Positions 7,975 to 43,711 are shown, counted from the stretch's first letter. The stretch: DNA of 64,000 nt from Alphaproteobacteria bacterium (GCA_965225945.1 CBDDBZ010000039.1:544001-608000), one strand, 5' to 3'. The notes: generated by a model from the sequence alone, not told the origin. Made by a program: numbers and translations.

Positions 7975-7998
7975 TTAACGCCCGCCACGACGTCGGCC

Positions 7999-9201: not shown

Positions 9202-9507
9202 CGTCCCCCGTCCTCGCGACGAATTACGCGCGGGAACGGCGCATCGCCCTCCCCTCTCCCCTGAATATGGCTACGCTCGGGGAAGACGCCAGTGACCACC
9301 GACACGGATCGCGCGGCGCGTCCAGCGGCGCGGGCGCCATCACGCCAATGGAGGGACCAACCCGAAGACCATCCCCCGCCGGCGCCCGCGGTCGCTTCGA
9401 CGAGCCAGATGCCCACAGCTCCCACACCACACCGTGGGGCACGACCATCAGCTGGATTTCGTATGACACCAAACGCGATAAATGGCGACTCCTCTGCGCG
9501 GACAGAC

Positions 9508-10044: not shown

Positions 10045-10109
10045 CGCTCGCCTGATTTCGTCATCGCGAGGCCGCGCCGGGCGGATTCGACCAAGCTCGA
10101 AATGCACTA

Positions 10110-11288: not shown

Positions 11289-11291
11289 TAG
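10167..11291 (+). CDS. IS630 transposase
   Basis: N-terminal HTH; CVDEK, VMDNY and [13 protein letters not shown] motifs intact; the ATG at 10170 is the likelier start. Confidence 0.95.
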
Positions 11292-19132: not shown

Positions 19133-20311
19133 GTGTCCTGATCGATAAATTGATATGATTATGTCTCTATTTGTTTTCAGGAGGCGCGATTGATGGCGAG
19201 AGTGGCGGTGACGATCTCTTTGAGCGATGACGAGCGCGCCGAATTGGAGGCGCTGTCTCGTCGTCGCAAGACGTCGCAGGGGCTTGCGCGGCGGGCTCGG
19301 ATCGTCTTGGCGGCGGCGGAAGGGTTGGAGAACAAGGAGATCGCCGTTCGTCTCGAGGCGAGCGCGGACACCGTGGGCAAGTGGCGTCGCCGCTATGCGG
19401 CGGAGGGCCTCGACGGTCTGTACGACGAACCCCGCCCCGGCGCGCCGCGTCAAATCGGCGATGACGCCATCGCGGAAGCGGTCCGGCTGACGCTGGAAGA
19501 GACGCCGCCGGACGCGACCCATTGGAGCCTTCGCTCGATGGCGCGGGCGAGCGGCCACGCGCCCTCGACCATTCATCGCATCTGGCGGGCCTTCGGCTTG
19601 CAGCCGCATCGCTCGGAGACCTTCAAGCTGTCGAGCGATCCCTTCTTCGTGGAGAAGGTCCGCGACATCGTCGGTCTGTATTTGGCGCCGCCGGATCGTG
19701 CCCTGGTTCTCTGTGTCGACGAAAAGAGCCAGATCCAGGCCCTGGACCGTTCCCAGCCCCTCTTGCCGATGCGCCCCGGGCAGGCGGAGCGGCGCAGCCA
19801 CGACTACAAGCGCCACGGCACGACCTCTCTCTTCGCGGCCCTCGACATCGCCACGGGAGAGATCATCGGCAAATGTTTCCCGCGCCATCGGGCCCGAGAG
19901 TTCCGCAAATTCCTCGACCTCGTCGAGGCGAACGTCCCTGCTGATCTCGACATCCACATCGTCATGGACAACTACGGGACCCACAAGACCAAGGCGATCC
20001 GCGACTGGTTCGCCAAACGGCCGCGCTGGCAGGCCCATTTCACACCCACCAGCGCCTCCTGGCTCAACCAGGTCGAGCGCTGGTTCGGGCTGCTGACCGA
20101 CAAACAGATCAGGCGCGGCGTCCATCGCTCCACCAAGGAGCTGGAGCGCACCATCCTCGACTACATCGACACGACAAACCAGAACCCCAAACCCTTCAAA
20201 TGGACCAAATCCGCCGATGACATCCTCGCCGCCATCCAGCGGTTCTGCCTCCGAACAATCGAAACCGCTGAACAGCAGGCGAAAATCATGCGAACTTCGG
20301 AATCGGGACAC
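19133..20311 (+). mobile_element. IS630-family element, copy 2 (near-identical to copy 1)
   Basis: Same ends as copy 1; CTAG at 19130-19133 and 20311-20314. Confidence 0.95.
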
Positions 20312-21396: not shown

Positions 21397-22619
21397 CATG
21401 GTACACGACGGCATTTACGTAGGACGTTGAAAAGGTTGTAGGATTCCCGATTCACTCCACGACGAGTCAAGAGGGAAATCATGCGAGACAACCCGATCAA
21501 CGCCCTGCGTGAGACGCTACGATGCGGCTTCGCCTTTCGCAAGAGCCGTCTGGAGAGCCTTTGCGTCTTGGTCTTCGGCGTGTTCGTCGCCCGGACGGTG
21601 AACCTCTCTCACTTGGCCTGCCACTTTCCGGGGCGCGCGCGATCCAGCTCCAACTATCGGCGCCTGCAACGGTTTTTCGAGCAAGTCGATTTCGATTACG
21701 ATCGCCTCGCCGAGTTCCTGGTCGCGATGATGGGGCTCCAGGCGGGGCCGTGGCGGCTGACCATGGACCGGACCAACTGGCGGCTGGGTCGCCGCGACGT
21801 CAACATCTTGATGATCGGCATCGTCAACCGCGCCATCGCCATTCCCGTGTGCTGGCGGGTGCTCGACAAGGCGGGCAATTCCAATACCAAGGAGCGGATC
21901 GCGATCCTCGAACACGTCCTCCGGCTCTTCGGGGTCGACAAGATCGCCAGCCTCCTGGCCGACCGGGAATTCATCGGCGACGCCTGGCTGGCATGGTTGC
22001 AGGAAAAGGCCATCCCCTTTCACATCCGCATCCGATCCAACATCAAGATCGCCAACACGCGTGGTCGCATGGTCAAGGCGAGGGAGCTGTTTCGCGACCT
22101 CAAACCCGGGGAAAGCTGCATCCTCTCCAACGCCAGGCGCCTCTCGGAGGCCAGAAAACCCAAGGCCAGGCCCGTCTTCGTCGCCGCGCTCCATCTCAAG
22201 ACCGGCGAACTGTTGATCGTCGTGACCAACGACGCGCCCGAGGAGGCCTTGGCCATCTACGCCCAGCGCTGGCAAATCAAGACCCTCTTCGCCGCCTTGA
22301 AAACCCGTGGCTTCAACCTCGAAGACACCCACATGACCGACCCGGAGCGCATCTCCAAGCTCACCGCCGTCCTTTCCATCACCTTCTGCTGGGCGCACAA
22401 AGTCGGCGATTGGCTCCACGAGGCCGAGCCGATCCGCCTCAAAACCCACAAAAGGATGGCAAAATCCATCTTCCGATACGGTTTCGAGTGGATAAGGCGA
22501 CAGCTCGTCAATCCTATCGACAGGCGTCAAGCCATTGAGCTGATTCGTTTCCTCGTCCCCGGAAAACCACCAGTCCAGGTGCCCAGGCCAAAGCCAGCAT
22601 GAACGAGTCGTGTACTGTG
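21397..22619 (+). mobile_element. IS4-family element with a 9-bp target duplication
   Basis: Inverted ends CATGGTACACGAC and GTCGTGTACTGTG; CCAATCGCC at 21388-21396 and 22620-22628. Confidence 0.92.
21481..22602 (+). CDS. IS4-family DDE transposase, probably inactive (catalytic Glu replaced by Lys)
   Basis: MDRTNW and LADREF motifs; the YREK motif reads YAQRWQIKTLFAALK. Confidence 0.88.
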   Translation: MRDNPINALRETLRCGFAFRKSRLESLCVLVFGVFVARTVNLSHLACHFPGRARSSSNYRRLQRFFEQVDFDYDRLAEFLVAMMGLQAGPWRLTMDRTNWRLGRRDVNILMIGIVNRAIAIPVCWRVLDKAGNSNTKERIAILEHVLRLFGVDKIASLLADREFIGDAWLAWLQEKAIPFHIRIRSNIKIANTRGRMVKARELFRDLKPGESCILSNARRLSEARKPKARPVFVAALHLKTGELLIVVTNDAPEEALAIYAQRWQIKTLFAALKTRGFNLEDTHMTDPERISKLTAVLSITFCWAHKVGDWLHEAEPIRLKTHKRMAKSIFRYGFEWIRRQLVNPIDRRQAIELIRFLVPGKPPVQVPRPKPA

Positions 22620-27130: not shown

Positions 27131-28612
27131 TCAGCCTTTGTCCAGGCGGACGGCGATGAAGCGCAAGTCGCCGCCACGCTCCAGCAGCAGCAGGACCGAC
27201 TTTCGCTTCGACTTCTTGACCTTGGTGACCTTGCGCAGCACCTCGCCGGGGGTGCCGACTTCCTCCTGCGCCACCTCGACGATCAGGTCGCCCTCGCGGA
27301 TGCCCTTCTCGGCCGCCGCGCCGTCGGGGTCGACCTCGGTGACGACGACGCCGCGAGCGTCGTCGCTAAGGCTGTATTTCTTGCGTCGCTCGTCGGTGAT
27401 GGTCGAGAGCGTCATGCCGATGGTTTCGACCGTTTCGGAAAATACCGGACCCTTTGGTTCGGACGAGGCGACGGTGGTTTTCTCCGCCGCTTCCAGCTCG
27501 CCGATCGCGACGCTTAGCTCGACCTCGGCGTTCTTCCGCCAGACCTCGACCTTGACCTTCTTGCCGATCCGGGTTTCGGCGACGATGCGCGGCAGCTCGC
27601 GCATCTCGGTGACCGCCTTGTCGTCGAAGGTCAGGATCACGTCGCCTTGTTGCATGCCGGCGGCCTCCGCCGGGCCGCCCTCGCTGACGCCGGCGACGAG
27701 CGCGCCCGTGGCCTCTTCCAGGCCCAGGCTTTCGGCGATCTCGTCGGTCACCGTCTGAATGCGGACGCCGAGCCAGCCGCGCCGGGTGCGGCCGAACTCC
27801 GAAAGCTGCTCGATGACGTTCTTGGCCAGCGCGGCGGGAATGGCGAAGCCGATGCCGACGCTGCCGCCCGAGGGCGAGAAAATCGCCGTGTTGATGCCGA
27901 TCACGCGGCCGTCCATGTTGAACAGCGGGCCGCCCGAATTGCCCCGGTTGATCGAGGCGTCGGTCTGGATGAAGTCGTCGTAGGGACCGGCGTTGATGTC
28001 GCGGCCCCGGGCCGAAATGATGCCGGCGGTGACGCTGCCGCCGAGGCCGAAGGGATTGCCGATGGCGACCACCCAGTCGCCGACCCGGGCCTCGTCGGAG
28101 CTGCCCCACTGGACCGCCGGCAGCGGCGCCTTCGCCTCCACCTTCAACAGCGCCAAGTCGGTCTTCGAATCCCTGCCGAGAATCTTGGCCGGCAGCCTCT
28201 CACCGTCGGAAAAGGTGACCGAGACCTCGTCCGCCTCGGCGATGACGTGATTGTTAGTGACGATCAAGCCATCCTTGTCGATGACGAAGCCGGAGCCGAG
28301 CGAGGTCACCCGGCGGGGCCTGTTCTGCTGGTTGCCGGGGGGACGGTTGCGCTCGAAGAATTCCTTGAAGAACTCCTCGAAGGGGGAGCCGGGGGGAAAC
28401 TGGAAGCCGGGCTGGCCCTGGTTGCCCTCGATCTTCTGGGTGGTCGAGATGTTGACGACGCTGGGCGACAGCTCGGCGGCGAGGTCGGCGAAACTTTCGG
28501 GCACCCCGCGCGCCCACGCCGGCGTCGCCAGCGCCACGGCCGTCGCCATGGCCACCACCGCCGCCGCCACGCGGGGCGCCGCAAAGGTCCTCGCCGGCGT
28601 CTCGGCCGGCAT
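27131..28612 (-). CDS. degP: DegP/HtrA periplasmic serine protease with two PDZ domains
   Basis: TNNHV, DLAL and INRGNSGG catalytic triad; the start codon is uncertain. Confidence 0.93.
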   Translation of the reverse strand: MPAETPARTFAAPRVAAAVVAMATAVALATPAWARGVPESFADLAAELSPSVVNISTTQKIEGNQGQPGFQFPPGSPFEEFFKEFFERNRPPGNQQNRPRRVTSLGSGFVIDKDGLIVTNNHVIAEADEVSVTFSDGERLPAKILGRDSKTDLALLKVEAKAPLPAVQWGSSDEARVGDWVVAIGNPFGLGGSVTAGIISARGRDINAGPYDDFIQTDASINRGNSGGPLFNMDGRVIGINTAIFSPSGGSVGIGFAIPAALAKNVIEQLSEFGRTRRGWLGVRIQTVTDEIAESLGLEEATGALVAGVSEGGPAEAAGMQQGDVILTFDDKAVTEMRELPRIVAETRIGKKVKVEVWRKNAEVELSVAIGELEAAEKTTVASSEPKGPVFSETVETIGMTLSTITDERRKKYSLSDDARGVVVTEVDPDGAAAEKGIREGDLIVEVAQEEVGTPGEVLRKVTKVKKSKRKSVLLLLERGGDLRFIAVRLDKG

Positions 28613-28976
28613 ATCCTGCAGAATCGCGTAAATCCCTGACACGCGCCTTCTCCTTGGCTGTAGGGCGGCATCCCCGGACGGAGACCGGCCTCGAATTGTC
28701 GGACAATTAAGCCCCACGACGCATCCTTGCAAGTTCCGTGGGCCCAGCCGCAACTGGGAAGCGATTGCGGCCATTCTATGGCCAAATCGGGGAAAAGTCC
28801 GGCCCCGCGGCCGCAGCGCTGGCGGGTCGCCCTATTCCCGACGCTCGCCGGCGGAAAATGGCCGGCGGAATAATGGCGGGGGGAATAAGGGAGGGCGGCC
28901 CTGGGGCCGCCCTCTGGTATCGCCTTCGGATGGCTCGCCCGGCCATGTGCTCGGGCGTGGAAATACGCCGAAGCGA

Positions 28977-30107
28977 CTACATCCGGTACTCGTCCGGGAT
29001 CAGCATCAGGCTGTCCTGATCCTCGGCCACGGCGGCGTGACAGTCGATGCAGAACTGCATCTTGGCGCTGTTCTCGCCTTTGGTGACGCCGAAAACGGCG
29101 CCGTCCGGCATCACCATGGTGTAGCGCCAGTTGCCGCTCGCCTTGTTGAAGCCGGCGGGCATCTTTTCCATCACAAACAGCGGGCCCGCCGCCATCTTGC
29201 CGTTGCCATGGACGGCGAAGCTGTCCTTGGCCAGGATCGAGCCGACGGGCATCTGCCCGACCTCCTCGAACTTGCCGTAAGCCTTGCCGGTCGCATTCGC
29301 GTAGTTGTTGACCAAGCGGCCACCATGGGTATCGGAGACGTAGGGCTGTTTGTTGTAGATGTCCCAGTTCTTGTAAAAGCTGGCGATCTTCAGCCCCGAC
29401 TTGGCGTAACCCGCCACCATCTCCTTCAACAGACACTCGTAGGCGCCCTTGGCCTCGGCCGTGGTCAGCTTCGGCGCGGCGCCGCCGCCGCAGGGGCCGC
29501 ACGGGCTGCAGGCGCCGCAAGCCTTCTTGGCGGCGCAGGGGTTGCACGCGCCGCAGGCCTTCTTGGCGGCGCACGGGTTGCAGGCACCGCAAGCCTTCTT
29601 GGCGGCGCAGGGGTTGCAGGCACCGCAGGCCTTCTTGGCGGCGCAGGGGTTGCACGCGCCGCAGGCTTTCTTGGCGGCGCAAGGGTTGCAGGCCGACGCC
29701 GTCACCAGGCGCGGGATCACGCACTTGCTGGAATAGCTGGCGGCACCACCGCCGCAGGGGTTGCACGGGTTGCACGCCCCACAGGCCTTTTTCGCCGCGC
29801 AAGGATTGCACGCACCGCAGGCCTTCTTGGCGGCGCAGGGGTTGCACGCGCCGCAGGCCTTTTTGGCCGCGCATGGATTGCAGGCGCCACAGGTCTTTTT
29901 CGCGGCGCAAGGGTTGCAGGCCTTGCAGGCCGCCACCCGGATCGCGCCGTCGGCGGGTTTCACGAGCGCCGCCGGATTGGCGAGACCGTCCGCGCCGCCC
30001 CGGGCGAACGTGGCATCGGCGAGCGCGATGGCGCTGGCGGCGACGCCGGCGCCGACGAACAGCTGGATCATCGTGCTCGAAAGCAGATTGGCTTTATGCG
30101 ATTTCAC
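28977..30107 (-). CDS. Secreted Cys-rich repeat protein fused to a cytochrome P460-like domain
   Basis: AGGAGG RBS before GTG; signal peptide; two blocks with 4 and 5 CNPCAAKK units; C-terminal domain with GSILAKDS, GNWRY and CIDCH (CXXCH). Confidence 0.85.
   Translation of the reverse strand: MKSHKANLLSSTMIQLFVGAGVAASAIALADATFARGGADGLANPAALVKPADGAIRVAACKACNPCAAKKTCGACNPCAAKKACGACNPCAAKKACGACNPCAAKKACGACNPCNPCGGGAASYSSKCVIPRLVTASACNPCAAKKACGACNPCAAKKACGACNPCAAKKACGACNPCAAKKACGACNPCAAKKACGACSPCGPCGGGAAPKLTTAEAKGAYECLLKEMVAGYAKSGLKIASFYKNWDIYNKQPYVSDTHGGRLVNNYANATGKAYGKFEEVGQMPVGSILAKDSFAVHGNGKMAAGPLFVMEKMPAGFNKASGNWRYTMVMPDGAVFGVTKGENSAKMQFCIDCHAAVAEDQDSLMLIPDEYRM
29490..29930 (-). repeat. 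Two blocks of coding 36-bp tandem repeats (ACGACNPCAAKK)
   Basis: 12-codon periodicity; variation between units is almost all at synonymous positions. Confidence 0.95.
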
Positions 30108-30197
30108 GACCCGGGCCTCCTGGATGTTACCTCAGCCTCCCTGGGCGGTGGTGCCGACGCTCCCGATCGGTCGCGCATCACCTCCCTTGAGGGGCGG

Positions 30198-30243
30198 ATA
30201 CTAGCGAGGCCGACTCGTCACGCCTCATAAACACTGTGTGATG
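30198..30243 (-). promoter_or_regulatory. Palindromic operator plus -10 box upstream of the P460 fusion gene
   Basis: Minus strand: CATCACA-N5-TTTA-N5-CGTGACG-N12-TAGTAT; same layout as 30786-30831. Confidence 0.65.
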
Positions 30244-30285
30244 CTGCGCCGCAGCAAAATGGCTTCGGCACAAGCGGGAATCGAA

Positions 30286-30316
30286 ACGCCGCCGTCGGCT
30301 AAGCCGGCGGCGGCGT
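30286..30316 (-). terminator. GC-rich stem-loop just after the small Cys-rich gene
   Basis: ACGCCGCCGTCGGC-TAA-GCCGGCGGCGGCGT, 14-bp stem with one mismatch; the U-tract is short. Confidence 0.5.
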
Positions 30317-30336
30317 CTTCGACGATCGCGCGCGCG

Positions 30337-30651
30337 CTATTTCTTCTTCTTGGCGGCGCAGGGATTGCACGCCCCGCAAGCCTTTTTGGCGGCGCAGGGA
30401 TTGCACGCGCCACAAGCCTTTTTCGCGGCGCAAGGGTTGCACGCGCCGCATTTCTTCTTGGCGGCGCAGGGGTTGCAGGCCTTGCAGGCCGCGACCTGGA
30501 TATAGCCGGTCGCCTTGCTCGCGGCCGCCGGATTGCTCAGCCCGTCGTTGCTCGCCGCGCCGGCATGGCCGATGGCGCCGAGCGCGAGCGTGGCGCCGAG
30601 CACGAGCGGCATGAAGGTGCTGGAAAGAAGTTTGGACTTGTGGGAACTCAT
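30337..30651 (-). CDS. Small secreted Cys/Lys-rich repeat peptide (104 aa, 12 Cys)
   Basis: AGGAGG RBS; leader homologous to the neighbour's (SHK..LLSST, DGL.NPAA, I.VAACKAC); four CxxCNPCAAKK units. Confidence 0.88.
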   Translation of the reverse strand: MSSHKSKLLSSTFMPLVLGATLALGAIGHAGAASNDGLSNPAAASKATGYIQVAACKACNPCAAKKKCGACNPCAAKKACGACNPCAAKKACGACNPCAAKKKK

Positions 30652-30785
30652 GGATCGACCTCCTGTTAGTGGCAACGGCACCTCCGGTCGCCTCGGCCGC
30701 GCCCTCGCGCCACCGCCTTCCTCGAGCCGTTGCCTTTTCCCGCCGCGCCGACGACCATCGCCAGCGCGCGCCGGTTAGATGAGGC

Positions 30786-30831
30786 ATTCTATGCGGCGAT
30801 CCACGTCACGAATTGTAAAGAATCTGTGATG
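30786..30831 (-). promoter_or_regulatory. Palindromic operator plus -10 box in the divergent region upstream of the small Cys-rich gene
   Basis: Minus strand: CATCACA-N5-TTTA-N5-CGTGACG-N12-TAGAAT. Confidence 0.65.
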
Positions 30832-30887
30832 ACGCGACGCGCCTCGACGGTGGCGTTCCTATAACTAGGGCGCGAGGGAGGCGAGAG

Positions 30888-31730
30888 ATGACGATCGGCC
30901 GCATGAGCTTGGCGATCCTGCTGCTGCTGGCGGCGAATTTGGCGCGGGCCGGTATCGTGGCGCCGGAGAGCGTGGGGGTGCCCGCCGGCGCATTCGTCCA
31001 AGGCTCCGACCGGGCCGAGCGGGAGGCCGCCTACCGATTGGACGAGCGCGCCTACGGTCACGACCTCACCCGGCGCGACAAATGGTACGAGGACGAGCCC
31101 CGCCGACGCCTGGAGCTGCCGGCCTTCCGGATCACCAAGACGGCGATCACCAACTGTCAATACGGCCAATTCCTGGCCGCGAACGACCGTGCCGCCCCCG
31201 ACGTCAGGCGCGACGTCTGGAAGAGTTACGGGCTGATCCATCCCTATTCCCGGACCCGCCGCCATGCCTGGCGCGACGGCGCGCCGCCGCCGGGACGCGA
31301 GGACCACCCCGTGGTCCTGGTGAACCACGCCGACGTCCGGGCCTACGCGGCCTGGCTGTCGGAGACGACGGGCGTCACCTGGCGGTTGCCGAGCGAGGCG
31401 GAGTGGGAAAAGGCGGCCCGCGGCAGCGCCGGGCGCCGCTATCCGTGGGGCGACGCGTTCGAGGCGGGGCGCCTGAACAGCCACGACGCGGGGCCGTTCG
31501 ATACCATGGCCGTCGGCCGCTTTCCCGACGGCGCCAGCCCCTTTGGCCTGCTGGACGCCGCCGGACAGGTCTTCGAATGGACGGCGACGACGGCCGGCGC
31601 CGGGCGCCATATCGTCAAGGGCGGCTCGTGGGACGACAAGGGCTGCGGGGTCTGCCGTCCGGCGGCGCGCCATTCCAGACCCGATTTTCTCAAGCACATC
31701 CTGGTCGGCTTCCGGCTGGTGCGGCAATGA
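30888..31730 (+). CDS. Secreted FGE-sulfatase (SUMF1/EgtB/PvdO family) domain protein
   Basis: Signal peptide; HPVVLVN, RLPSEAEWEKAARG, YPWG, GQVFEW, KGGSWDDKGCGVCR and GFRLV motifs. Confidence 0.9.
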   Translation: MTIGRMSLAILLLLAANLARAGIVAPESVGVPAGAFVQGSDRAEREAAYRLDERAYGHDLTRRDKWYEDEPRRRLELPAFRITKTAITNCQYGQFLAANDRAAPDVRRDVWKSYGLIHPYSRTRRHAWRDGAPPPGREDHPVVLVNHADVRAYAAWLSETTGVTWRLPSEAEWEKAARGSAGRRYPWGDAFEAGRLNSHDAGPFDTMAVGRFPDGASPFGLLDAAGQVFEWTATTAGAGRHIVKGGSWDDKGCGVCRPAARHSRPDFLKHILVGFRLVRQ

Positions 31731-31809
31731 TGCTAGAGAGGGCGAGGCGCGGACGTCTCGGGGGGTCTTTCAATCTCCTCGAAACGGCGAATGATCGGGA
31801 GCCATCGCG

Positions 31810-32517
31810 ATGGCGCTGTTCGACGAACTCGAGACCGAACGCATCGAGGAGATGCTGCAGGCGGGAGCTGAGATCGAGGAATGCTACCGGGTGCTGCGCA
31901 AGGTCGACGCCAACATCGTCGGCGAGATTCTGAAAGGCCACGGCACCTTCTACGAATGGGATCACTACCCGCCGGGGGACGTCTTCGACGACGAGACCCA
32001 TTGCCAGTATTATTACCATTCGCACCGGCCGGAGGGGAGCGAGCACGGCCATTTCCACACCTTCGTTCGGGCCGGCGCCCTGCCCGCGGGGTTGACGCCC
32101 CTAGCCCACGAGGGCGAGGAGGAATGGCCCGCCGGCGACGACCGGATCGCCCATATCGTTGCCATCGCGATGGAGAAGCGGGGCTATCCGACCCATCTCT
32201 TCACCACCAACCGCTGGGTGACGGGCGAGACCTTCCATGCCGCCGACGGCGTGATCGGCGTGATCGACCGCTTCGATATCGATCACGCCTACCCCTCCTG
32301 GCCCGCCAACCGGTGGCTGACGGCCATGGTCAAATTGTTCCGCCCGCAGATCGAAGTATTGTTACGCCAGCGTGACGAAAAGATCGGTGAGTGGGCGGCG
32401 GCGCATCCGGGCGCGGACGTCTACGAGGACCGGGAGCTGGAGGTCACCTCGAAGTCACCGATTTCCGTCATCCGTCAGATCAAGACCCTAAGGACAGCCC
32501 TGCGCGGCCGGCGCTGA
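31810..32517 (+). CDS. His-rich conserved hypothetical protein (DUF6969-like)
   Basis: HYPPGDVFD, YYYHSH, EHGHFHTF and LFTTNRWVTGE motifs; family name from recall. Confidence 0.7.
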   Translation: MALFDELETERIEEMLQAGAEIEECYRVLRKVDANIVGEILKGHGTFYEWDHYPPGDVFDDETHCQYYYHSHRPEGSEHGHFHTFVRAGALPAGLTPLAHEGEEEWPAGDDRIAHIVAIAMEKRGYPTHLFTTNRWVTGETFHAADGVIGVIDRFDIDHAYPSWPANRWLTAMVKLFRPQIEVLLRQRDEKIGEWAAAHPGADVYEDRELEVTSKSPISVIRQIKTLRTALRGRR

Positions 32518-32681: not shown

Positions 32682-33095
32682 ATGAGCGAGAAATTCGAGA
32701 AGTCCGAGGCCGAATGGCGCGCCGAGTTGAGCGAAGAGCAGTTCTACGTGACCCGGCTCAAGGGGACGGAGCAGCCCTTCACCGGCAAATACTGGAACGA
32801 GAAGCGCGAGGGCGTCTACGCCTGCATCTGCTGCGGCGAGGAACTCTTCCTTTCCGATCACAAGTTCGATTCCGGCACCGGTTGGCCCAGCTTCTGGCAG
32901 CCGATCGACAAGGCCAAGGTGCGCGAAGAGCACGACCACGGCCTCGGCATGCACCGGGTCGAGGTGCTGTGCGAGAAGTGCGACGCGCACCTCGGCCACG
33001 TCTTTCCCGACGGGCCCCGGCCGAGCGGCGCGCGCTATTGCCTGAACTCGGCCTCGCTGGCGCTGAAGGCGAAGCCGGGCGACGGCGAAGGATGA
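32682..33095 (+). CDS. msrB: Peptide methionine-(R)-sulfoxide reductase
   Basis: [21 protein letters not shown] and RYCLNS motifs; two CxxC zinc pairs. Confidence 0.97.
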
Positions 33096-33136: not shown

Positions 33137-34120
33137 GTGGCGTGGGCCGGCCGCCTCGGGTTTGCGCTGGCGGCCTCGATTCTCGCCGCGCCCGGGACAT
33201 CGCGCGCCGACGTCTGCGCCCTGGTCGACCGGGCGACGGCGGCGCGCGCGGCGGCGATATTGCGCGCCGCCGAACGATTGCTGGTCGACGATTGGTTCCG
33301 GCCGATTACGATTCGCCGGGTCGAAATTCGCGCCGAGCGTGGCCTCCACCGAGTGGTGGTGAACGCGGAGGTATCGCTCGATCTGGCTTACGCCTACGTC
33401 GACGACGGGGCATCGGGCTACCGGCGCGTCGGCGCCGCCCTCGATTGCTTCAGCCGCTGGCCCGATTCGATTCCGGCGACGCCCTTCACCTCCTCGGCCC
33501 CGGCGCGGTCTTGGCGGCCACCCGACAACCTGGCGGGCGAGCCCGGCGACGTCGGCATCCTCGGTCTGCTCGAACTCCCGGGCCTTGCGGACGATCCCCC
33601 GCGGCTGGACATCCGGGTCCATCCGGCCCCGAATACGGCGTCGCGGCCGATCCGCCGGCTCGGCCATCCGAGCGCCCTGGCGACGCGCGAGTTCGACTAC
33701 GAACGGCCGGGCGCGATCGTGCTTGCCCGGCACGCCGGCTGGTACCGAGTTCGCCTCCGCCGCGGTGTTGCCTGGATCCCGGAGGGCGAGGGCATGCGCT
33801 TTCACGCCGTGGCGGATCTCGTGCGGGACAACCTCGCCTATCTCACCGCCGCTTGGGACGGGCGGCTCCGGGCGGCGGCGGGGGTGGAGAAGGATGTTCG
33901 CTGGATCGTGCCGGCCTGGCGCAGGCGCATGGGCCATCCCATATCGGTGGAGCTGCGAGAGTCCCGCGAGCGTGGCGGGGAAACCTGGCTCCGGATCGCG
34001 ATTCCCTGGCCGCCGCCCTGCGACGGCGACGAGCCGACGCGGGTCGTCGCCGAGGGCTGGGTCCCGGCCAGGGCGGCGGACGGGCGGCTCGCCGTCTGGT
34101 TCTTCTCGCGGGGCTGCTGA
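33137..34120 (+). CDS. Hypothetical exported protein
   Basis: Signal-like N-terminus, SH3-like GWYRV/AWIP segments, C-terminal WFFSRGC. Confidence 0.6.
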   Translation: MAWAGRLGFALAASILAAPGTSRADVCALVDRATAARAAAILRAAERLLVDDWFRPITIRRVEIRAERGLHRVVVNAEVSLDLAYAYVDDGASGYRRVGAALDCFSRWPDSIPATPFTSSAPARSWRPPDNLAGEPGDVGILGLLELPGLADDPPRLDIRVHPAPNTASRPIRRLGHPSALATREFDYERPGAIVLARHAGWYRVRLRRGVAWIPEGEGMRFHAVADLVRDNLAYLTAAWDGRLRAAAGVEKDVRWIVPAWRRRMGHPISVELRESRERGGETWLRIAIPWPPPCDGDEPTRVVAEGWVPARAADGRLAVWFFSRGC

Positions 34121-34358
34121 GCCCCGTCGCGGGTGGTTCCGTCGGCTCGGACGATGCGCTAGCCTGGCCTCGCCCGCTCGGGTCGATTCGCCGGGGAACG
34201 GGTGGTCCGACCAGGTCGAGATCGGCTCGGTCGAGATCGGCTTCGGGCCGGGTTTCGAGGCGGGCGAATTCGGAGCGAAGCGAACGCGGAGCGACGACGC
34301 CATGGAACAGGTCAAGTGGGCCAACGGCTACCGGCTCCACTCGGCGGCGCGTCTCCTG

Positions 34359-35321
34359 ATGCCGGACATCAGCCGCACCGCCCAGCCGAAGCCGCGCGAC
34401 TACGCCTATGATCTGGAGGGCACGCTCGACGCCGTGCTCTCGCTCCGCTCGGAAATCCCGGAGGACGCCTTCACCGCCTCGATCCTCGGCACCGAGCGGG
34501 AAGGCCACGGGGTGCTGATCGGCGATGACGGCCTGGTGCTGACCATCGGCTATCTGATCGCCGAGGCGGCACAGGTCATGCTGGCGGCGATGAACGGCAA
34601 GGTCGCCGGGGCCCGGATCGTCGCCTACGACTACGACAGCGGCTTCGGCCTGGTCAGGGCCTCGGAGCCGCTCGACGTCCGGCCGATTCCGATCGGCATC
34701 TCGCGCGGCGTCGCCGTCGGCGACCGGATGGTGGTCGGCGGTCATGGCGGCACGGGCCAATCGCTGGCCGCCAAGGTGGTTTCCAAGCGGGAGTTCGCGG
34801 GCTATTGGGAGTATCTCCTGGACGAGGCGATCTTCACCGCGCCGCCGCATCCCAACTGGGGCGGCGCCGCGCTGATCGGCGAGGACGGCAAGCTCGCCGC
34901 CATCGGCTCGCTCTTCGTGCAGGACGCGGTGACCGGCGAACAGGCGATGCGCGGCAACATGTTCGTGCCGATCGACTTGCTCAAGCCGATCCTGCCGGAG
35001 CTTCTCGCCAATGGGCGGACCAGCAAGCCGACCCGGCCCTGGCTCGGCATGTTCACGACCGAGATCGAAGGCCATCTGGTGGTCGCTGGCCTGGCGCACG
35101 GCGGCCCGGCGGAGCGAGCCGACGTCCGGGTGGGCGACATCGTCTTGGGCGTCGCGGGCGAGGGCGTGCACAGCCTGGCCGAAATGCTGCGCCGGATCTG
35201 GTCGCTCGGCGGCGCCGGGATCGAGGTGCGCATGACCTTCCAGCGCGAGGACAAGCTGGTCGAGGCGGTGATCGATTCGGCCAACCGCTACGACTTCATG
35301 AAGGTCTCGCACCTCCACTGA
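34359..35321 (+). CDS. S1C/HtrA-like protease homologue with PDZ domain and a degenerate catalytic triad
   Basis: GHGVLI, LTIGYLI, PNWGGAAL and RPWLG motifs. Confidence 0.85.
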   Translation: MPDISRTAQPKPRDYAYDLEGTLDAVLSLRSEIPEDAFTASILGTEREGHGVLIGDDGLVLTIGYLIAEAAQVMLAAMNGKVAGARIVAYDYDSGFGLVRASEPLDVRPIPIGISRGVAVGDRMVVGGHGGTGQSLAAKVVSKREFAGYWEYLLDEAIFTAPPHPNWGGAALIGEDGKLAAIGSLFVQDAVTGEQAMRGNMFVPIDLLKPILPELLANGRTSKPTRPWLGMFTTEIEGHLVVAGLAHGGPAERADVRVGDIVLGVAGEGVHSLAEMLRRIWSLGGAGIEVRMTFQREDKLVEAVIDSANRYDFMKVSHLH

Positions 35322-35351: not shown

Positions 35352-35858
35352 ATGGACGGGGCGGAACTGAAGGCGATACAGGCGCCGATCAAGGCGCGCT
35401 ACCGGGACCAGCCGGAGGCGGCGGTGATCACCCTCAGCGCCGAGGGCTCGATCGGCGAGGGCGTCACCTGTTCGGTGGAGACGGGGCGGGCGCTGGTCGA
35501 GGCGGGGCTGCACCCCGCGACCGGCGGCAGCGGCGCGCACGCGTGTTCCGGCGACATGCTGTTGCAGGCCCTCGTCGCCTGCGCCGGCGTCACCTTGAAC
35601 GCGGTGGCCACGGCGCTCGGCCTCGAGCTCGGGGATGCCCGGATCCGAGCCGAGGGCGATCTCGACTTCAAGGGGACCCTCGGCGTCGATCGCGATGCGC
35701 CCGTGGGTTTCCGCGACATTCGCCTTTGCTTCGAGCTCGACGGCGACCTCGACGCGGAGCAGACGGCGACGCTGATGAAGCTCACCGAGCGCTACTGCGT
35801 CGTCTACCAGACCCTGAAGGCGGCACCGCCGATCGAGGTCGCGGTCGGCGCCGGTTGA
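35352..35858 (+). CDS. OsmC family protein
   Basis: CSGDMLLQALVACAG, AEGDLDFKG and TERYCVV motifs. Confidence 0.9.
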   Translation: MDGAELKAIQAPIKARYRDQPEAAVITLSAEGSIGEGVTCSVETGRALVEAGLHPATGGSGAHACSGDMLLQALVACAGVTLNAVATALGLELGDARIRAEGDLDFKGTLGVDRDAPVGFRDIRLCFELDGDLDAEQTATLMKLTERYCVVYQTLKAAPPIEVAVGAG

Positions 35859-38228: not shown

Positions 38229-38948
38229 ATGGCGCGAGACGGCATTGAGGCCTGCGTCTTCGACGTCTTCGGGACCGTCGTGGACTGGCGCGGCTCGCTC
38301 GCCCGCGATGGCCGGGCGCTGGGCGCCGCAAGGGGAATCGATCTCGACTGGGAACGCTTCGCCCGGGACTGGCGGGCGCTCTACCAGCCGGCGATGGAGT
38401 TGGTGCGGAGCGGCCAGATGGGCTTCGTCAAGCTCGACGTGCTGCATCGCCAGAACCTGGTCGAACTGCTGGCGCGCCACGCCATCGAGGCCCTGTCGGA
38501 GGCGGAGATCGATGACTTCAACCGCGCCTGGCACCGGCTCGATCCCTGGCCGGACGTGGTCCGGGGGCTGACCCGGCTGAAGTCCCGCTTCACCATCGCC
38601 ACGCTCTCCAACGGCAACGTGGCGCTGATCGTGGCCATGGCCAAGCGGGCGGGTCTGCCCTGGGACACGGTGCTGGGGGCCGAGGTGGCACGGCACTACA
38701 AGCCCCAGCCCGAGGCCTATCTGAACGCCGTCGATTTTTTGAGCCTGGAGCCGGCGCAAGTGCTGATGGTGGCGGCGCACAACGCCGATCTGGTGGCCGC
38801 GCGAGCCTGTGGCCTCTCGACCGCCTTCGTCGCCCGACCGACGGAATACGGCCCCGAGCAGAACCGCGACGCTAAGGCCGAGCACGATTTCGACTTTGTC
38901 GCCCGGGACTTCGGCGACCTCGCCGACCAGCTCGATTGTCCCGCCTGA
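38229..38948 (+). CDS. Haloacid dehalogenase, type II
   Basis: FDVFGTVVDW, LSNGN, YKP and MVAAH..DL motifs. Confidence 0.9.
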   Translation: MARDGIEACVFDVFGTVVDWRGSLARDGRALGAARGIDLDWERFARDWRALYQPAMELVRSGQMGFVKLDVLHRQNLVELLARHAIEALSEAEIDDFNRAWHRLDPWPDVVRGLTRLKSRFTIATLSNGNVALIVAMAKRAGLPWDTVLGAEVARHYKPQPEAYLNAVDFLSLEPAQVLMVAAHNADLVAARACGLSTAFVARPTEYGPEQNRDAKAEHDFDFVARDFGDLADQLDCPA

Positions 38949-38959
38949 AGGAGCCTGAA

Positions 38960-39841
38960 ATGACCGAATCCACTCACCGTTACGTCCGCCCCGAGCTGTT
39001 GATCGAGACCGAGGAGCTGGCGGCCGGGCTCGGCGCGCCGGGCTTGCGCCTGTTCGACTGCACGGTCCATCTCGACCCCGATCGGAAGCAGGTCTACACG
39101 GTCCGCAGCGGCCGCGCCGATTATGATGGCGGTCACATCCCGGGCGCCGTCTTCCTCGATATCCAGGCGGAGCTTTCGGTGGCCGACAGCCCTCTCCGCT
39201 TCACTTTCCCACCGACCCAACACTTCGCCGCCGCGATGTCGGCCCGAGGCGTCGGCCCGGAGAGCGAGGTGGTGCTCTACAGCAGCACCAAGGCACAATG
39301 GGCGACCCGGGTCTGGTGGATGCTCCGCGCCTTCGGCTTCGAGGGCGCCAGGGTCCTGAACGGCGGCCTCTCCAAGTGGCGGCGCGAGGGGCGGCCGCTC
39401 GACCGCGAAACACCCAGCCATCCACCGGCCACCTTCGAGGCCAGGCTTCGGCCCGAGATGGTGGCCGACAAAGCGGACGTGCTGGCCGCTCTCGACCAGG
39501 CGGGTTGTCTGTTGGTGAACGCGCTCAGCCCCGAAAAGCACCAGGGCGAGGGCATTCCTTACGGCCGCGCCGGGCGCATCGCAGGCTCCGTCAACCTGCC
39601 GGCCGACGACCTGTTGGACGCCGAAAGCGGCTGCTTCCTGCCGGCGGCGGCTCTGGAAGCGCGCCTCGCCCTGGTCGGGGTGCGCGACCACGCGCGCGTC
39701 ATCACCTATTGCGGCGGTGGCATCGCCGCGACCGCCGACGCCTTCGCCATGGCGCTACTGGGTCTGGACGCGGTGGCGATGTACGACGCCTCGCTCTCGG
39801 AATGGGCCAACGATCCGGCCCTGCCGATGGCGACCGGCTGA
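38960..39841 (+). CDS. Tandem-domain rhodanese / sulfurtransferase
   Basis: GHIPGA, RVWWML, YCGGG active-site loop and YDASLSEW motifs. Confidence 0.9.
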   Translation: MTESTHRYVRPELLIETEELAAGLGAPGLRLFDCTVHLDPDRKQVYTVRSGRADYDGGHIPGAVFLDIQAELSVADSPLRFTFPPTQHFAAAMSARGVGPESEVVLYSSTKAQWATRVWWMLRAFGFEGARVLNGGLSKWRREGRPLDRETPSHPPATFEARLRPEMVADKADVLAALDQAGCLLVNALSPEKHQGEGIPYGRAGRIAGSVNLPADDLLDAESGCFLPAAALEARLALVGVRDHARVITYCGGGIAATADAFAMALLGLDAVAMYDASLSEWANDPALPMATG

Positions 39842-39853: not shown

Positions 39854-40369
39854 ATGCCCACGATTCACGTCTCGAACCTGGCCGATCTCGAGGCTCGCCT
39901 CCATGCCGTCAGGCCGAGCCATCTGGTCTCGATGCTGGCCGACGACGCGTTTCCCGAAACGCCCGAGTGGATCGCCGACGCCGATCATTTGCGGCTCCGC
40001 TTCCACGACATCGCCGAGCCGCTGCCCGATCACGTGGCCCCGGGGGGGCATCACCTCCACTCGCTGATCGACTTCGCCCGGGGCTGGCCGGGCGAGGCGC
40101 CGATCGTCGTCCATTGCTTCGCCGGCGTCAGCCGCTCCACGGCCGCGGCCCTGACGGTGCTGGCATTGCACAATCCGGGCCGCGAGGCGGAGGCCGCGGC
40201 ACTGCTCCGGGCCCGCGCCCCGCACGCCTATCCCAATCGGCTGATGATCCGCCTGGTGGACGAGATCCTGGCGCTCGACGGCCGCCTGGTCGCCGCCGTC
40301 GAGGCCATGGAGGAGCCGGATTACCAGACCCTGGGAACGCTGGTGGAGCTCCCGCTCCGGCTGGAGTGA
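39854..40369 (+). CDS. Protein-tyrosine phosphatase-like protein
   Basis: HCFAGVSRS (CX5R) motif. Confidence 0.88.
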   Translation: MPTIHVSNLADLEARLHAVRPSHLVSMLADDAFPETPEWIADADHLRLRFHDIAEPLPDHVAPGGHHLHSLIDFARGWPGEAPIVVHCFAGVSRSTAAALTVLALHNPGREAEAAALLRARAPHAYPNRLMIRLVDEILALDGRLVAAVEAMEEPDYQTLGTLVELPLRLE

Positions 40370-43300
40370 TATCCCGCCAAGCGCCATGAATGGCGACTTC
40401 CTGGCCGCCGCTTTTTTTGATCACCGCTCGCGCGGCCCGTCGGGGGAGCGGGGCGGCCGGAACTTACATCGAATGGTTTCAGACGGCGCGGACAACGCTC
40501 TACCATCGCGTCGCGCGCGCGGCCGAGCAGGCGGAACAGCTTGCCGGCATCGGAGCCCAGCATTGTGCTCCGGGTGGTCTCGCCTTTATCGTCGGCGCCG
40601 GCGAGGGCGAGATAGGCCTCGAAGGCGGCCAGGTAGGCATCGGCCTGGGCGCAGAAGGCGGCGTTCTCCCGGTATTCCCGTGCGAGCCGGTCGCCGGCCC
40701 TTTCCTCGCCGCCCGGGCGGCGGATCAGCTTGGAGAGGAAGTGACCGTCGCTCGCCGGCGCCGATTTCTCCGCGAGGTCGAGCCGGGCGAGATCGAGGCC
40801 GAGCCGGTTCAGGGCATTTTCGATAGCAGCGAGGCTGGAGAGGAAATCACCGGCGGCCACCCCGTCCTCGGCGATCCCGCTCGTCTCCGGGGCCGGCAGC
40901 GCCTTCGGCCGGCCGGCCTCCGGCGTGGGTTCCGCCACCTCCAGGGTTCGCGCGGTTAGCTCGCCCAGATCGTCGACATGGCGGGCCAGGCGCGAGACCA
41001 GCGAATCCGTCGTCGCCGACAGCGCCATCAATCGCGCCTCCAGCATCGCCGCGCGCTGATCGGCGAGGTCGCTGGCGCCGGCTATCGCCTCGCCCGCCTT
41101 TCGGATCAAGGCCTCCACCCGTTGGTCGAGCCGGCTCTCGGCGCCCTCGACGCGGTCGATGAGGGTCGCCAGCAGGCCAGCGATCTGCTCTTGCCGTTGG
41201 CTCAGCTCGCAACCTGCCTCGACCAGTCGCGTGAGCTCGCCCGAGGTCTCGGCCTGGAGTTCTTGGATCCGCCCGTCGAGCTCCCGTGCGCCGTCGCGTA
41301 GTCGATTAGCGCCTTGTTCGGCGGTGGCACCCAGGCGTTCGATATCCTCGGCAACCTTGCTCGCGGCCGCCGCGCCCTGGTCGCCGCCGGCCTCGAGCGC
41401 TGTCGCCGCCGTCGCCACCGCCCGCGTACCGCGCTCCATCGCGGCTTCCATCGCCGTCGCCGTCCGCGCCAATTCGGCCCGCGCCGCCTCGGCCGCGCCG
41501 AGGCTCTCCCGGCCCTCGCGGTACAGATTCGCGCGTGTCGCCGCGCCCTCGCGGACGAAGGCTTCGAGCTCCGCACGGGCCCGGCCGACGGCCTCGACGA
41601 GCGTCGATTCGGTCGTCTCGGCCACGCCGTCCGTCCGCTCCAGTAAGGTCGCGAGCGCGCCCAGGCCTTCGTTCAGCCGCGCGAGCCGCGCCTCCGCCTC
41701 GGCGAATTCGTGTGCGGCCGCCTGGAGCCCGCTCGTCCCCACGCTCGCCGCCCGATCCAGCGCCTCGACACCGTCGTCGAGTTTCGCCGTCGTCGAGGCC
41801 AGCGCCGCCCCGGCCCTGGCGCCGGCCTCGGCGATGTGGTCGAGCTCCTCTCCGAGGGCGCGGCCGAGCACCTCGACCTCGCCCGCCTGGTTCCGGGCCG
41901 CCGTCAGCAGTCGCGCGCCGTCGCCGGCGAGCCGTTCGCCCATGCCCTCGAGCCGGGTCGTCGCCTCGTCGAGGCTCGCCGTCAGGGCCGCTCGCTGTGC
42001 TTCCACCGAAGCGGCCAGCGCGTTGCCCTTCCGGGTCACCGCGTCCGCCATGGCGTCGAGGCTCCGCAACCGCTCAGCCATGGAGGCGGCAAGCGATTCG
42101 GCGCTCGTATCGCTCGCCTGGGCGCTCTCCGCCAGAGCTTCGCGGTGGCGCGCCAGGACCTCGCCCATGGTCCGCGCGCGCGCCTCCGCGGCGTCGGCGG
42201 TTTCGTCGAATACCCGGCCCAGTCGGGTCATCTCCGCCTCGATCGTCCGCAGACGGTCCTCGGCGCCTGCAAGCGATTCGCCGAGCCCTTCGATCCTGGT
42301 CCCGATTCGATCGGTCGTGGCACCCAGCTCGAGCTGCCTGTCGCCAAGCATCGTTGCCGCCGAGGCCAAGACCTCGGCCTGGGTCTGGGCGTCGCTCGCC
42401 AGGGCCTCTTCTCGCTCGGCGAGCGTCGCGGCCTCTTCGCCCACGATGCGCATTGCCCCTTCCAGCGCCTCGTTCGCGGCCTCGATCCGCCGCGCGCTCT
42501 CGGCGCCGGCGCCGGCCAGGGCCGCCTGGTGATCGCCGAGCTCGTCCGTCGCCTGGGCCAGGCGATCCACCGCCTCGACTCCCAACCGGGCGAGCGCCTC
42601 GGCCCGGACTTCCAAGCGATCGCCGGCGTCGTCCAATTCCTGGACGCTCACTTCAGCCGCCGTCGAGAGCGCGCTTCGCCGCGCCTCGAATTCGTCACCC
42701 GCCTGGCGCACCGCCTCGGCGACGCCGAGCGCCACCTCGACCGCGCGCGCACCGCGCCGGGCGATGCTCGCCTCGATCGCGCGGGCCCGTTCGTCGACCT
42801 GCCGCGAGGTGCCCTCGATCCGCTCGGCGTCGCGGCTCAGCAACTTGCTCATCCGCGAGACCCGGCTGTCGAGATCGTCGAGTACGCCGTCGAGCCGAGC
42901 CGCCTGGGCATCGAGCGCGAGCCCGGCCTCGCGGCCCCGAACCTCCGCCAGCGACACCGTCGCCATCAGCAACGAGGCCTGGTCGCGGATTGCCAGGCCG
43001 ACCTCGCGGGCCCGCTCGGCCGCTTCGCCGACCATGCTCGCGGCCAGCTCGCCGCGGCGTCGGAGACTGGTTTCCAGGTCCTTGTGGTGATAGGCGATAA
43101 GCTCCGAGGCGCGAGCCAGCGAGCGGGCCCGTTCGTCGAGCTGGCGGGCGCTCTCAGCCGAGCGCGCGTTCGCCTCCTCGGCGGTCTTGCGCAGCAGTTC
43201 GGCGCGATGGCCGAGCGTTATCTCGCTTTCCCGCGCGGCCTCCGCCGCCGCGTTTACCACCGTGGTCAAGGCCTCGATCGAGCGCTCGGTTGCCGTGCGG

Positions 43301-43711
43301 GCGATCTCGGCGTGGCGCTCCAGGCCGGCCGCGACCGAGCGCATGCGCGCATCTCCCCCGGGCGCGGGGAAGGCCAAGGCGTCGAGACGGGCCTTCGAGC
43401 GCCCTGGCGTGGCGCTCGAAGGCCTCGCCCCGGCGGAGATAGAGCAGCACCAGCCATAGCAGGATCGCCGGCGCCGCCACCCCCGCCGCCGCCATCGCCA
43501 ACTCGTGCGCCGGCAGCGCCACGAAGGCGCGTGCGCCGGTTTGATGGACGATGTAGCCCAGGACGAGAGCGAACCAGGCGAGGGTGGCGCCGACGCCGAT
43601 CAGCGGAACTCGACGATGCCCGCCGGCGCGCGCGCCGGCGACGTCGACCTCGGCCCGGGGCTCGCTGGCGACCAGCGGCAGGGCGGAATTGGGGAGTTCG
43701 ATCTCGGCCAT
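40321..43711 (-). pseudogene. Large membrane-anchored coiled-coil protein (TipN/GPR-like polar scaffold) split by a 1-bp frameshift near 43394
   Basis: ORF 43154-43711 has two TM helices ending LLWLVLLYLRRG...ALE and continues as ARLDALAFP in the frame of ORF 40321-43377; C-terminus YLAAFE...TMLGSDAGKLFRLL. Confidence 0.7.

Follow-up and report, generated by a model that had tools for sequence, protein, structure and literature searches.

A 64,000-nucleotide (nt) stretch of DNA from an Alphaproteobacteria bacterium (GCA_965225945.1 CBDDBZ010000039.1:544001-608000, our G000:C39:544001-608000; hereafter the window), which lies within a 6.27-Mb assembly that is 96.6% complete, carries at positions 28,977 to 32,517 a module of four genes. 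Two of them encode cysteine-rich proteins with tandem Asn-Pro-Cys arrays, one being a free peptide and the other ending in a P460-type haem domain; the other two, divergently oriented, encode a secreted protein of the formylglycine-generating enzyme (FGE)-sulfatase fold and a protein of the family DUF6969. The module recurs in Alpha-, Beta- and Gammaproteobacteria with DUF6969 as its hub, and its arrays are fused independently to two catalytic, low-potential c-haem types. While the parts belong to known domain families as new members, the arrays and DUF6969 taken together correspond to no kind of system so far described. We interpret it, with a probability that we place a little above even, as a module of the periplasm that combines a poly-cysteine arm with a catalytic haem and has a general redox mechanism in which the two act together. 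Reactive sulfur is our first choice of substrate, a tentative one that we would not yet call probable.

Exported cysteine-array proteins

An initial annotation, made from the sequence alone, had described two adjacent genes with a common signal-plus-pro leader and tandem CxxCNPCAAKK units, together with divergently encoded FGE-like and His-rich proteins. Our open reading frames (ORFs) and Pfam searches located all of these genes where it had placed them (Table 1). The translations likewise agreed with its description of the two cysteine proteins, each of which begins with a common SHK..LLSST signal, continues with a pro-region bearing NP.A and (I/V)(R/Q)VAAC motifs and then enters the CxxCNPCAAKK arrays. 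The K..LLSST motif also heads array proteins across many Alphaproteobacteria. As read from these translations, both genes encode Sec-type exported proteins in which one Cys follows each Asn-Pro, and the shorter product is an untethered array.

The longer protein, of 376 amino acids (aa), has 38 Cys and a single, C-terminal CXXCH, and its gene starts with GTG, with AGGAGG located 8 nt upstream; its domain boundaries were counted by hand from the translation. The ORF of the free peptide (30337-30681, minus strand) extends over 114 aa; translation probably begins at the ATG of position 30651, ahead of which a separate AGGAGG lies and from which the product has the expected 104 aa with 12 Cys. At the DNA level the arrays consist of 36-nt tandem repeats, present 11.4 times at 29498-29921 and 3.8 times at 30346-30481. 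The arrays are free of aromatic residues and composed of Cys, Lys, Ala, Gly, Asn and Pro.

Among array proteins in general, the number of Cys ranges from 19 to 99 and Asn-Pro-Cys is the minimal unit, with dialects that extend from NPCAAK with one Cys per unit (Betaproteobacteria) to pure CNPC runs (Gammaproteobacteria). Beta-type array peptides have no leader other than the signal peptide. NCBIfam, including its bufferin/HvfA models and its models of RiPPs (peptides that are made on the ribosome and modified after translation), gave no family for either cysteine protein of the window, and no metallothionein family of NCBIfam or Pfam matched them.

Haem domains fused to the arrays

The tie to a haem that the initial annotation had proposed is a general one. 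We found 456 longer array proteins at E <= 1e-3 and sorted the best 120 with our own hidden Markov models (HMMs): 93 carry a P460-type domain, 25 a SoxA/TsdA-type domain and 2 neither, so that 118 of the best 120 have a haem domain. In one array protein (P0110; 244 aa with 24 Cys), the domain at the C-terminus lacks CXXCH and is neither P460 nor SoxA-like.

In the 376-aa protein, the Pfam family Cytochrome_P460 (PF16694) covers residues 245-363 with 29.8 bits, barely passing the cut-off of 27. An AlphaFold2 (AF2) model built from 24 orthologous haem domains (predicted local distance difference test, pLDDT, 86.4) gave 13 Foldseek matches in the PDB at E <= 1e-3, all of them P460 or c'-beta proteins, with McP460 (6hiu) at the top (E 2.7e-6, prob 1.00). 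CXXCH (aa 353-357) is invariant in 24/24 of the orthologous domains. In profile alignments Lys294 falls on Lys70 of NeP460 (2je2) in 24/24, a position at which TtCP-beta (7ead) has Phe and NeCP-beta (7s5o) has Met, and Glu314 falls on Glu96 of NeP460 in 22/24, across an insertion. The cross-link and distal residues Lys70/Glu96 of NeP460, Phe61 and Met79 are tabulated in PMC11928373 (citations here and below refer to excerpts of the articles). With its Lys and Glu aligned to those listed for NeP460, the domain shows, in sequence, the marks of a catalytic P460, namely a predicted cross-link Lys and a putative distal carboxylate. P460 haems are described as five-coordinate and of very low potential, with -400 mV for NeP460 and -340 mV for McP460 (PMC11928373). 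At one of the other loci (L095:9259-9729) a gene for an extra P460-type domain lies 1 kb past DUF6969, in addition to the array-P460 fusion.

In Beta- and Gammaproteobacteria the arrays flank a different mono-haem domain, for which PF21342 (SoxA/TsdA) scored above its cut-off in 6/6 proteins tested; in Pfam searches this family was absent from the 376-aa protein of the window, which matched P460 only. The SoxA-like domain has an invariant Cys 39 residues past the His of CXXCH (13/13 sequences), which is probably a haem ligand, and also matches CCP_MauG peroxidase profiles.

DUF6969 and the conservation of the module

The DUF6969 protein matches PF22308 with 279 bits against a cut-off of 27, and no NCBIfam model names it. 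It has no signal peptide and could therefore meet the arrays only before export. The YYYHSH and EHGHFH motifs, which had been noticed from the start, show little or no variation among 53 DUF6969 sequences that are 48-82% identical to that of the window. H52, D57, D60, Q66, Y68, Y69, H70, H72, E78, H81, H83, H115, N134, R135, W136, R188 and D189 are invariant in all 53, and the invariant His cluster is encoded at 32008-32058. In an AF2 model (pLDDT 94.1; predicted template modelling score, pTM, 0.92) the histidines lie on adjacent strands. The protein is predicted to be a metalloenzyme or a metal-binding protein. Neither a PDB sequence search nor Foldseek at E <= 1e-3 returned a solved relative (0 each), a wide VIA-align search reached a Z of at most 7.5, confined to a helical hairpin of 58 residues, and an Atlas search yielded DUF6969 clusters only; the family would add a metalloprotein fold for which these searches found no solved relative. 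Longer, fused DUF6969 proteins were found twice, once with SH3_3. A complex prediction of DUF6969 with residues 31-104 of the free peptide, i.e., without its signal, gave a score of 0.00, which counts neither way.

The linkage of the genes was analysed in three samples; for all counts, ORF calling and motif thresholds are our own and related genomes are not independent. The first sample consisted of 41 related genomes, 24 of which have DUF6969, and yielded 20 DUF6969 loci of 16 kb each. At 16 of these 20 loci the divergent layout of array-P460, FGE-like and DUF6969 genes is the same as in the window, and because this arrangement recurs in other genomes it is not due to chance. The remaining four loci contain DUF6969 paralogs but neither FGE nor P460, and two of them (L035 and L038) have an adjoining gene for a secreted [N/S]PC-repeat peptide, both together with a MerA-like oxidoreductase and a VTT/DedA protein. 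At L035 (G032:C26, about 5500-11302) an NPCAAK peptide, an extracytoplasmic function (ECF) sigma factor, NrsF and DUF6969 are encoded in a row directly upstream of merT/merP/merA, and DedA/VTT and MerA-like genes lie upstream.

The second sample came from a one-genome-per-species collection with at least 553 DUF6969 loci, of which the best 80 were examined; at least one locus is in both samples (L050 of the 80 is on the same contig as L034 of the 20). These 80 loci are from Alpha-, Beta- and Gammaproteobacteria, and the gene order varies by lineage. An ORF with at least five xPC repeats was found at 54/80 loci, and at 34/46 of those having at least 3 kb of flank on each side. The FGE-like gene was present at 45/101 loci. 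The gene module put forward in the initial annotation therefore stands as a conserved linkage but not as an obligate set of four. The annotation had also placed msrB after the module and degP on its other side, which is the case in the window. However, msrB lies 3' of DUF6969 at 14/16 module loci of relatives and at 3/80 wider loci, and degP adjoins the module at the two same-genus loci only (among the 20); both linkages are lineage-specific.

The third sample comprised 251 genomes taken evenly across the class, including G000; one of the genomes with DUF6969 (G262) is unpublished. A genome was scored as array-positive with at least three matches to the NPCAAK pattern or at least two to NPC-x3-NPC, and FGE-like orthologs were accepted at E <= 1e-60. 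DUF6969 was detected in 57/251 genomes, 28 of them without arrays. It accompanies the arrays in 29 of the 31 array genomes (the exceptions are G158 and G172), compared with 28 of the 220 others, and the FGE-like gene in 22 of 23 genomes, with the two genes adjacent in 17. The co-occurrence of the genes, which the initial annotation had put forward as a check, is thus borne out. Since 29/31 array genomes and 22/23 FGE-like genomes have DUF6969, DUF6969 is the hub on which the arrays and the FGE-like gene depend, and not the other way round.

Several other families recur beside the module. PF04143 sulfur-transport genes are present at 16/101 loci in several lineages, no more than 100 nt from DUF6969 in five cases, while multihaem cytochromes occur at 5/101 loci and a small cytochrome c at 9. 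Inside Beta/Gamma modules (L054, L077, L078, L066 and L052), beside DUF6969 or the PF04143 transporter, a gene encodes a multihaem cytochrome c some 435 aa long, with C7/C554/MtrC-like Pfam matches. Genes for ECF sigma/anti-sigma factors were found at 6/101 loci (NrsF-type linked at 3) and DUF302 at 13/101. At 12 loci a neighbour of DUF6969 encodes a secreted product some 160 aa long, in which three Cys are conserved and the C-terminus bears SCPLN.TP (for example L070:8665-9153 and L042:11165-11602); Pfam gave no family for this protein, which we presume to be cupredoxin-like. DUF2336 occurs at 11 loci, mostly without arrays, and at array-less loci (L063, L068, L071, L082, L084, L097, L103, L106, L024 and others) it often lies directly 3' of DUF6969, at 18-135 nt, suggesting a second, array-independent context for DUF6969. 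No copper or metal-efflux gene is conserved in module loci. In the 96.6%-complete genome of the window, we found no PF04143 gene, no NrsF and no match to MNIO (PF05114), for which the Caulobacter control matched.

Titles of DUF6969 records include Nitrosomonas, Gallionella, Sideroxydans, Accumulibacter, Azospirillum and Hyphomicrobium as well as marine and sponge-associated Alphaproteobacteria, and DNA of the module was also found in sponge and marine-sediment metagenomes. With the numbers of DUF6969 loci and longer array proteins given above, the module is widespread, and its carriers include bacteria that drive the cycling of nitrogen, iron, sulfur and phosphorus.

The FGE-like protein

The FGE-sulfatase domain (PF03781) is full length in the 280-aa protein, and the CGVC reported in the initial annotation is at aa 253-256 (31644-31655). 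Orthologs have signal peptides throughout and a near-invariant GGSWDD.GCG[VI]CR; CG[VI]C is kept in 42/45, one having CGVY and two being not assessable. The NCBIfam equivalogs EgtB, OvoA, SenA, PvdO and GldK gave at best 56 bits against cut-offs of 350-500. The nearest solved chain is ToxD, which is not an FGE, and PDB alignments to true FGEs end before the CGVC loop. The two Cys of CGVC lie in the segment from GGSW to the C-terminal GFR, the part in which FGE has its copper-binding pair, the loop itself being not alignable. The Cys pair of FGE is spaced as CxxxxC, and the FGE motif is CxPxR, which the CxPC of the arrays resembles. The FGE-like gene accompanies CxPC-dense arrays at 23/34 loci and single-Cys arrays at 3/20, a comparison that is confounded by phylogeny. 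No sulfatase was present among the recurrent neighbour clusters or in the scanned part of the window genes.

Upstream elements and transcripts

The initial annotation had supposed that the genes are co-regulated, and a common dyad, GTCAC-N15-TGTGA, upstream of both cysteine genes and of the FGE operon suggests that they may be. The genome has 29 such sites, compared with 5 for the reversed control, and a relaxed form of the dyad lies 72-125 nt 5' of the array gene at 12/17 module loci. The dyad is followed by a conserved -10-like box of the CCTATAAT type; in the window, the -10-like CCTATAAC is at 30858-30865, 28 nt past dyad copy 2. We considered an ECF sigma-F reading of the upstream motif and dropped it, the genome being without NrsF and the motif being a dyad and not a -35/-10 pair. 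The -10-like box was also considered as sigma-32-like, but we saw no -35 element to go with it.

Contigs at least 95% (most at least 99%) alike to the module were present in two metatranscriptome libraries of a single study, with DNA carry-over possible. They span the peptide gene in full; the P460 fusion, DUF6969 and msrB are covered in part, and so is the FGE-like gene, the latter in one of the two libraries only. Such contigs are weak evidence of expression and cannot show level, strand or operon structure.

Proposed mechanism and alternatives

In the mechanism that we favour, the arrays would be flexible multi-thiol arms whose capacity is set by the number of repeats. A low-potential haem with open coordination would bind and oxidise the arm thiolates, forming S-S or S-X bonds, and pass the electrons on, in a manner likened to SoxA and TsdA haems with a cysteine ligand and to the carrier cysteine of SoxY. 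The free peptide might serve as a detachable carrier or sink. In the periplasm, the FGE-like protein may use its CxxC to act on the CxPC thiols of the arms, and DUF6969 would be the cytoplasmic metalloprotein on which the arrays depend. The net role would be the capture and oxidative handling of thiol-reactive species within an envelope stress response. If the substrate is reactive sulfur, sulfide or thiosulfate would be kept as protein persulfide or thiosulfonate.

We read the arrays as multi-thiol arms because they are tied to two catalytic low-potential c-haems, depend on DUF6969 and vary in repeat number. That the arms would be oxidised or loaded by the tethered haem is suggested by the precedents of TsdA, SoxAX and the P460 haems. 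In TsdA a Cys S-thiosulfonate is formed on the haem Cys ligand (PMC4423706), the Cys/His haems of TsdA lie several hundred mV below +198 mV (PMC9562282), and Sox intermediates are carried on a cysteine of SoxYZ (PMC5336275), the carrier being loaded by SoxAX. Sulfur comes first among the candidate substrates because of the sulfur-transport, multihaem and cytochrome c neighbours.

A number of observations weigh against this mechanism. Free thiols in the periplasm are normally oxidised by the Dsb system. DUF6969 occurs without arrays in 28/57 genomes. The genome of the window has no PF04143 gene, so that sulfur import is not part of its mechanism, which weakens the case for sulfur here. Metals are suggested instead by the contexts at L035, where DUF6969 and the ECF sigma/NrsF genes stand beside merTPA, and by the MerA-like and DedA-type genes at L035 and L038. 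The counts draw on related genomes and on our own ORF calling and motif thresholds, and the function of the module is predicted from sequence and gene context. The established chemistry of P460 is that of hydroxylamine and nitric oxide (NO), not of sulfur (PMC11928373), and rare fusions with Cytochrom_C/FGE-sulfatase and with MerC are reported among bufferin metallophores (PMC12452194).

The foremost alternative, which we regard as possible though unlikely, is a metallothionein-like periplasmic buffer: the arrays would bind Cu(I), Hg, Cd or Zn stoichiometrically, the CxxC of the FGE-like protein and DUF6969 would handle the same metal in the periplasm and in the cytoplasm, respectively, and the haem would tune metal or thiol redox. 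The aromatic-free composition and the 19 to 99 Cys of the arrays fit such a buffer, as do the mer-linked locus L035, the MerA-like oxidoreductase at L035 and L038, the ECF sigma/anti-sigma genes at 6 loci and the invariant His cluster of DUF6969. FGEs, furthermore, belong to the copper enzymes, and fusions of bufferin domains to Cytochrom_C and FGE-sulfatase (Buf1-Cytochrom_C-FGE-sulfatase) or to MerC occur occasionally (PMC12452194). However, a passive sponge leaves unexplained both the catalytic-type haem in 118/120 longer array proteins and the Asn-Pro ahead of nearly every Cys, and neither a conserved copper or metal-efflux gene nor a metallothionein family match was found.

A second alternative is that the Cys are modified. 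DUF6969 (in the cytoplasm, before Sec export) and/or the FGE-like protein (in the periplasm) would convert the Cys of NPC or CxPC to another residue, giving a metallophore or reactive scaffold, an MNIO-free counterpart of bufferins and oxazolins. The strict N-P-C across three proteobacterial classes resembles an enzyme recognition motif, DUF6969 shows high conservation, numerous His, Asp and Glu being invariant, and is found in 29/31 array genomes, and the FGE-like gene prefers CxPC-dense arrays (with the phylogenetic confounding mentioned above). Sec signals, repeated Cys motifs and variable length are also features of HvfA and bufferins (PMC11252979, PMC12452194). Against this stand the 28/57 DUF6969 genomes without arrays, the Beta-type peptides without a leader past the signal peptide, the lack of an MNIO gene in the genome of the window and of a RiPP family match, and the CxxC of the FGE-like protein, which is unlike the CxxxxC of FGE and lies in a loop not alignable to true FGE. 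We consider such a modification rather improbable. A more specific form of it seems to us improbable as well: DUF6969 would be a new class of cytoplasmic multi-His metalloenzyme that rewrites the Cys of Asn-Pro-Cys repeats on Sec substrates (peptides and haem proteins) before export, with the FGE-like protein as a periplasmic finisher on CxPC, and would open, independently of MNIO, a second way of making Cys-derived metallophores or redox scaffolds for the periplasm.

We likewise see little likelihood that the module is a scavenger of oxidants or N-oxides, in which peroxide, NO or hydroxylamine would react at the haem, with the tethered thiols as a built-in reductant or nitrosyl acceptor. The P460 domain does appear to keep both hallmarks of the hydroxylamine-oxidising P460s, the second haem domain matches CCP_MauG profiles too, NrsF-type anti-sigma factors are linked at 3 loci, and msrB follows DUF6969 in relatives, with an OsmC-like gene and two HtrA-type proteases nearby. 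Yet the linkage of msrB, OsmC and degP is lineage-specific, no system that would re-reduce the arm is conserved in the loci, and the sulfur-transport neighbours are left unexplained. Finally, that the genes are mere neighbours without a common function, as the incomplete presence of FGE-like genes (45/101 loci) and array ORFs (34/46 loci with at least 3 kb flanks) might be taken to indicate, is very improbable, given an association that survives shuffled gene order in three proteobacterial classes and genome co-occurrences of 29/31 and 22/23 against a background of 28/220.

If the haem-driven thiol relay that we favour is true, it would represent an unrecognised periplasmic chemistry of sulfur, metals or oxidants, and the P460-type haem would gain a role beyond nitrification.

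Relation to known systems

The initial annotation did not recognise the combination as a described system, and our literature search, too, found no published description of DUF6969/PF22308, of the NPCAAK repeat or of a Cys-rich cytochrome P460. Nor did it find anything joining FGE-sulfatase, periplasmic, copper and Cys-rich; other repurposed FGE folds were all that it returned. In term searches, a 2025 review of P460 (PMC11928373) had no occurrence of 'fusion' and used 'cysteine' solely for CXXCH, and 'P460' and stand-alone 'cytochrome' were absent from the MNIO landscape paper.

The haem domain resembles P460 (NeP460 2je2/2je3, McP460 6hiu) and c'-beta in fold and in its C-terminal CXXCH, and, as judged from the alignment, P460 in the Lys at the cross-link position and the carboxylate at the distal-base position. 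Unlike P460, the protein places some 185 residues, namely signal, pro-region and both Cys arrays, before the domain, its kind comes from non-nitrifying Alphaproteobacteria, and its Pfam score is marginal. SoxYZ/SoxAX and TsdA agree in logic with the proposed mechanism: according to the papers cited above, sulfur intermediates are carried there on a cysteine of a protein, and the S-S bond is made by a low-potential c-haem with a Cys ligand. In Beta- and Gammaproteobacterial relatives the arrays flank the PF21342 domain. In contrast to SoxYZ, the array module has no SoxY/SoxZ fold and dozens of Cys instead of one, and the protein of the window is a P460 in a genome without PF04143.

Bufferins and oxazolins (BufA/HvfA with MNIO and a DUF2063 partner; PMC11252979, PMC12452194) share with the module a Sec signal, a repeated Cys motif, a length up to protein size, a dedicated cytoplasmic partner (a metalloenzyme there; DUF6969 here, as predicted) and occasional links to cytochrome c, FGE-sulfatase and Mer. 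They differ in that the genome of the window has no MNIO, no bufferin/HvfA model of NCBIfam or Pfam matches, the partner is DUF6969 and the motif is NPC, not EGKCG. Aerobic FGEs (SUMF1 and bacterial FGEs) have the FGE-sulfatase domain in common with the module, whose arrays contain C-x-P, whereas the FGE-like protein of the window has CxxC spacing, a periplasmic signal peptide and ToxD as its closest solved chain. The arrays are similar to metallothioneins in being Cys-rich, Lys/Ala/Gly-rich, aromatic-free, of low complexity and variable in length; unlike these, they are exported, have a strict Asn-Pro-Cys unit and are nearly always found with a haem domain and DUF6969.

Features of the window

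Table 1. Positions of the module, its parts and its flanking genes, counted from the first nucleotide of the window
Feature	Position	Strand	Evidence or remark
376-aa exported Cys-array/P460-haem protein gene	28977..30107	-	ORF, Cys count, Pfam
Signal peptide, aa 1-30, K..LLSST motif	30018..30107	-	Translation; cleavage site predicted
Pro-region, aa 31-60, NP.A and IRVAAC-type motifs, common with free peptide	29928..30017	-	Translation
Cys array 1, aa 61-118, CxxCNPCAAKK units	29754..29927	-	Translation, tandem repeats
Inter-array linker, aa 119-139, KC.IPRL.TA	29691..29753	-	Kept in P460 fusions
Cys array 2, aa 140-206	29490..29690	-	Translation, tandem repeats
P460-type haem domain, aa 216-376	28980..29462	-	AF2 model, Foldseek, profile alignment
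Lys294	29226-29228	-	Haem-domain residue
Glu314	29166-29168	-	Haem-domain residue
CXXCH, aa 353-357	29037-29051	-	Haem-domain residues
Free 104-aa exported array peptide gene	30337..30651	-	ORF, AGGAGG; alternative start 30681
Free-peptide array, aa 56-98	30358-30486	-	Translation
Dyad GTCAC-N15-TGTGA, copy 1	30217..30241	.	110 nt 5' of P460-fusion start
Dyad GTCAC-N15-TGTGA, copy 2	30805..30829	.	Between peptide gene and FGE operon
Secreted FGE-sulfatase-fold protein, 280 aa	30888..31730	+	PF03781, E 9e-43
DUF6969 protein, 235 aa	31810..32517	+	PF22308, E 2e-83
msrB (SelR/MsrB)	32682..33095	+	NCBIfam TIGR00357, 187 bits; Pfam
Do-family protease (degP)	27131-28774	-	Pfam

Within 7 kb downstream of the module, the window also encodes a second trypsin/PDZ protease (33585-35318), an OsmC-like protein (35352-35855) and a two-domain rhodanese (38936-39838), whose linkage to the module is not kept in the wider loci. 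The 327-aa ORF at 33137-34120 begins like a signal peptide and matches no family of Pfam or NCBIfam; over its C-terminal half it shares 57% identity with the ORF in the same position at the same-genus locus L026. On the minus strand, a 1018-aa ORF at 40324-43377 has no Pfam family at E <= 1e-5. Two transposase genes, DDE_3 (19190-20311) and DDE_Tnp_1 (21481-22599), are located on either side of the housekeeping gene ilvC.

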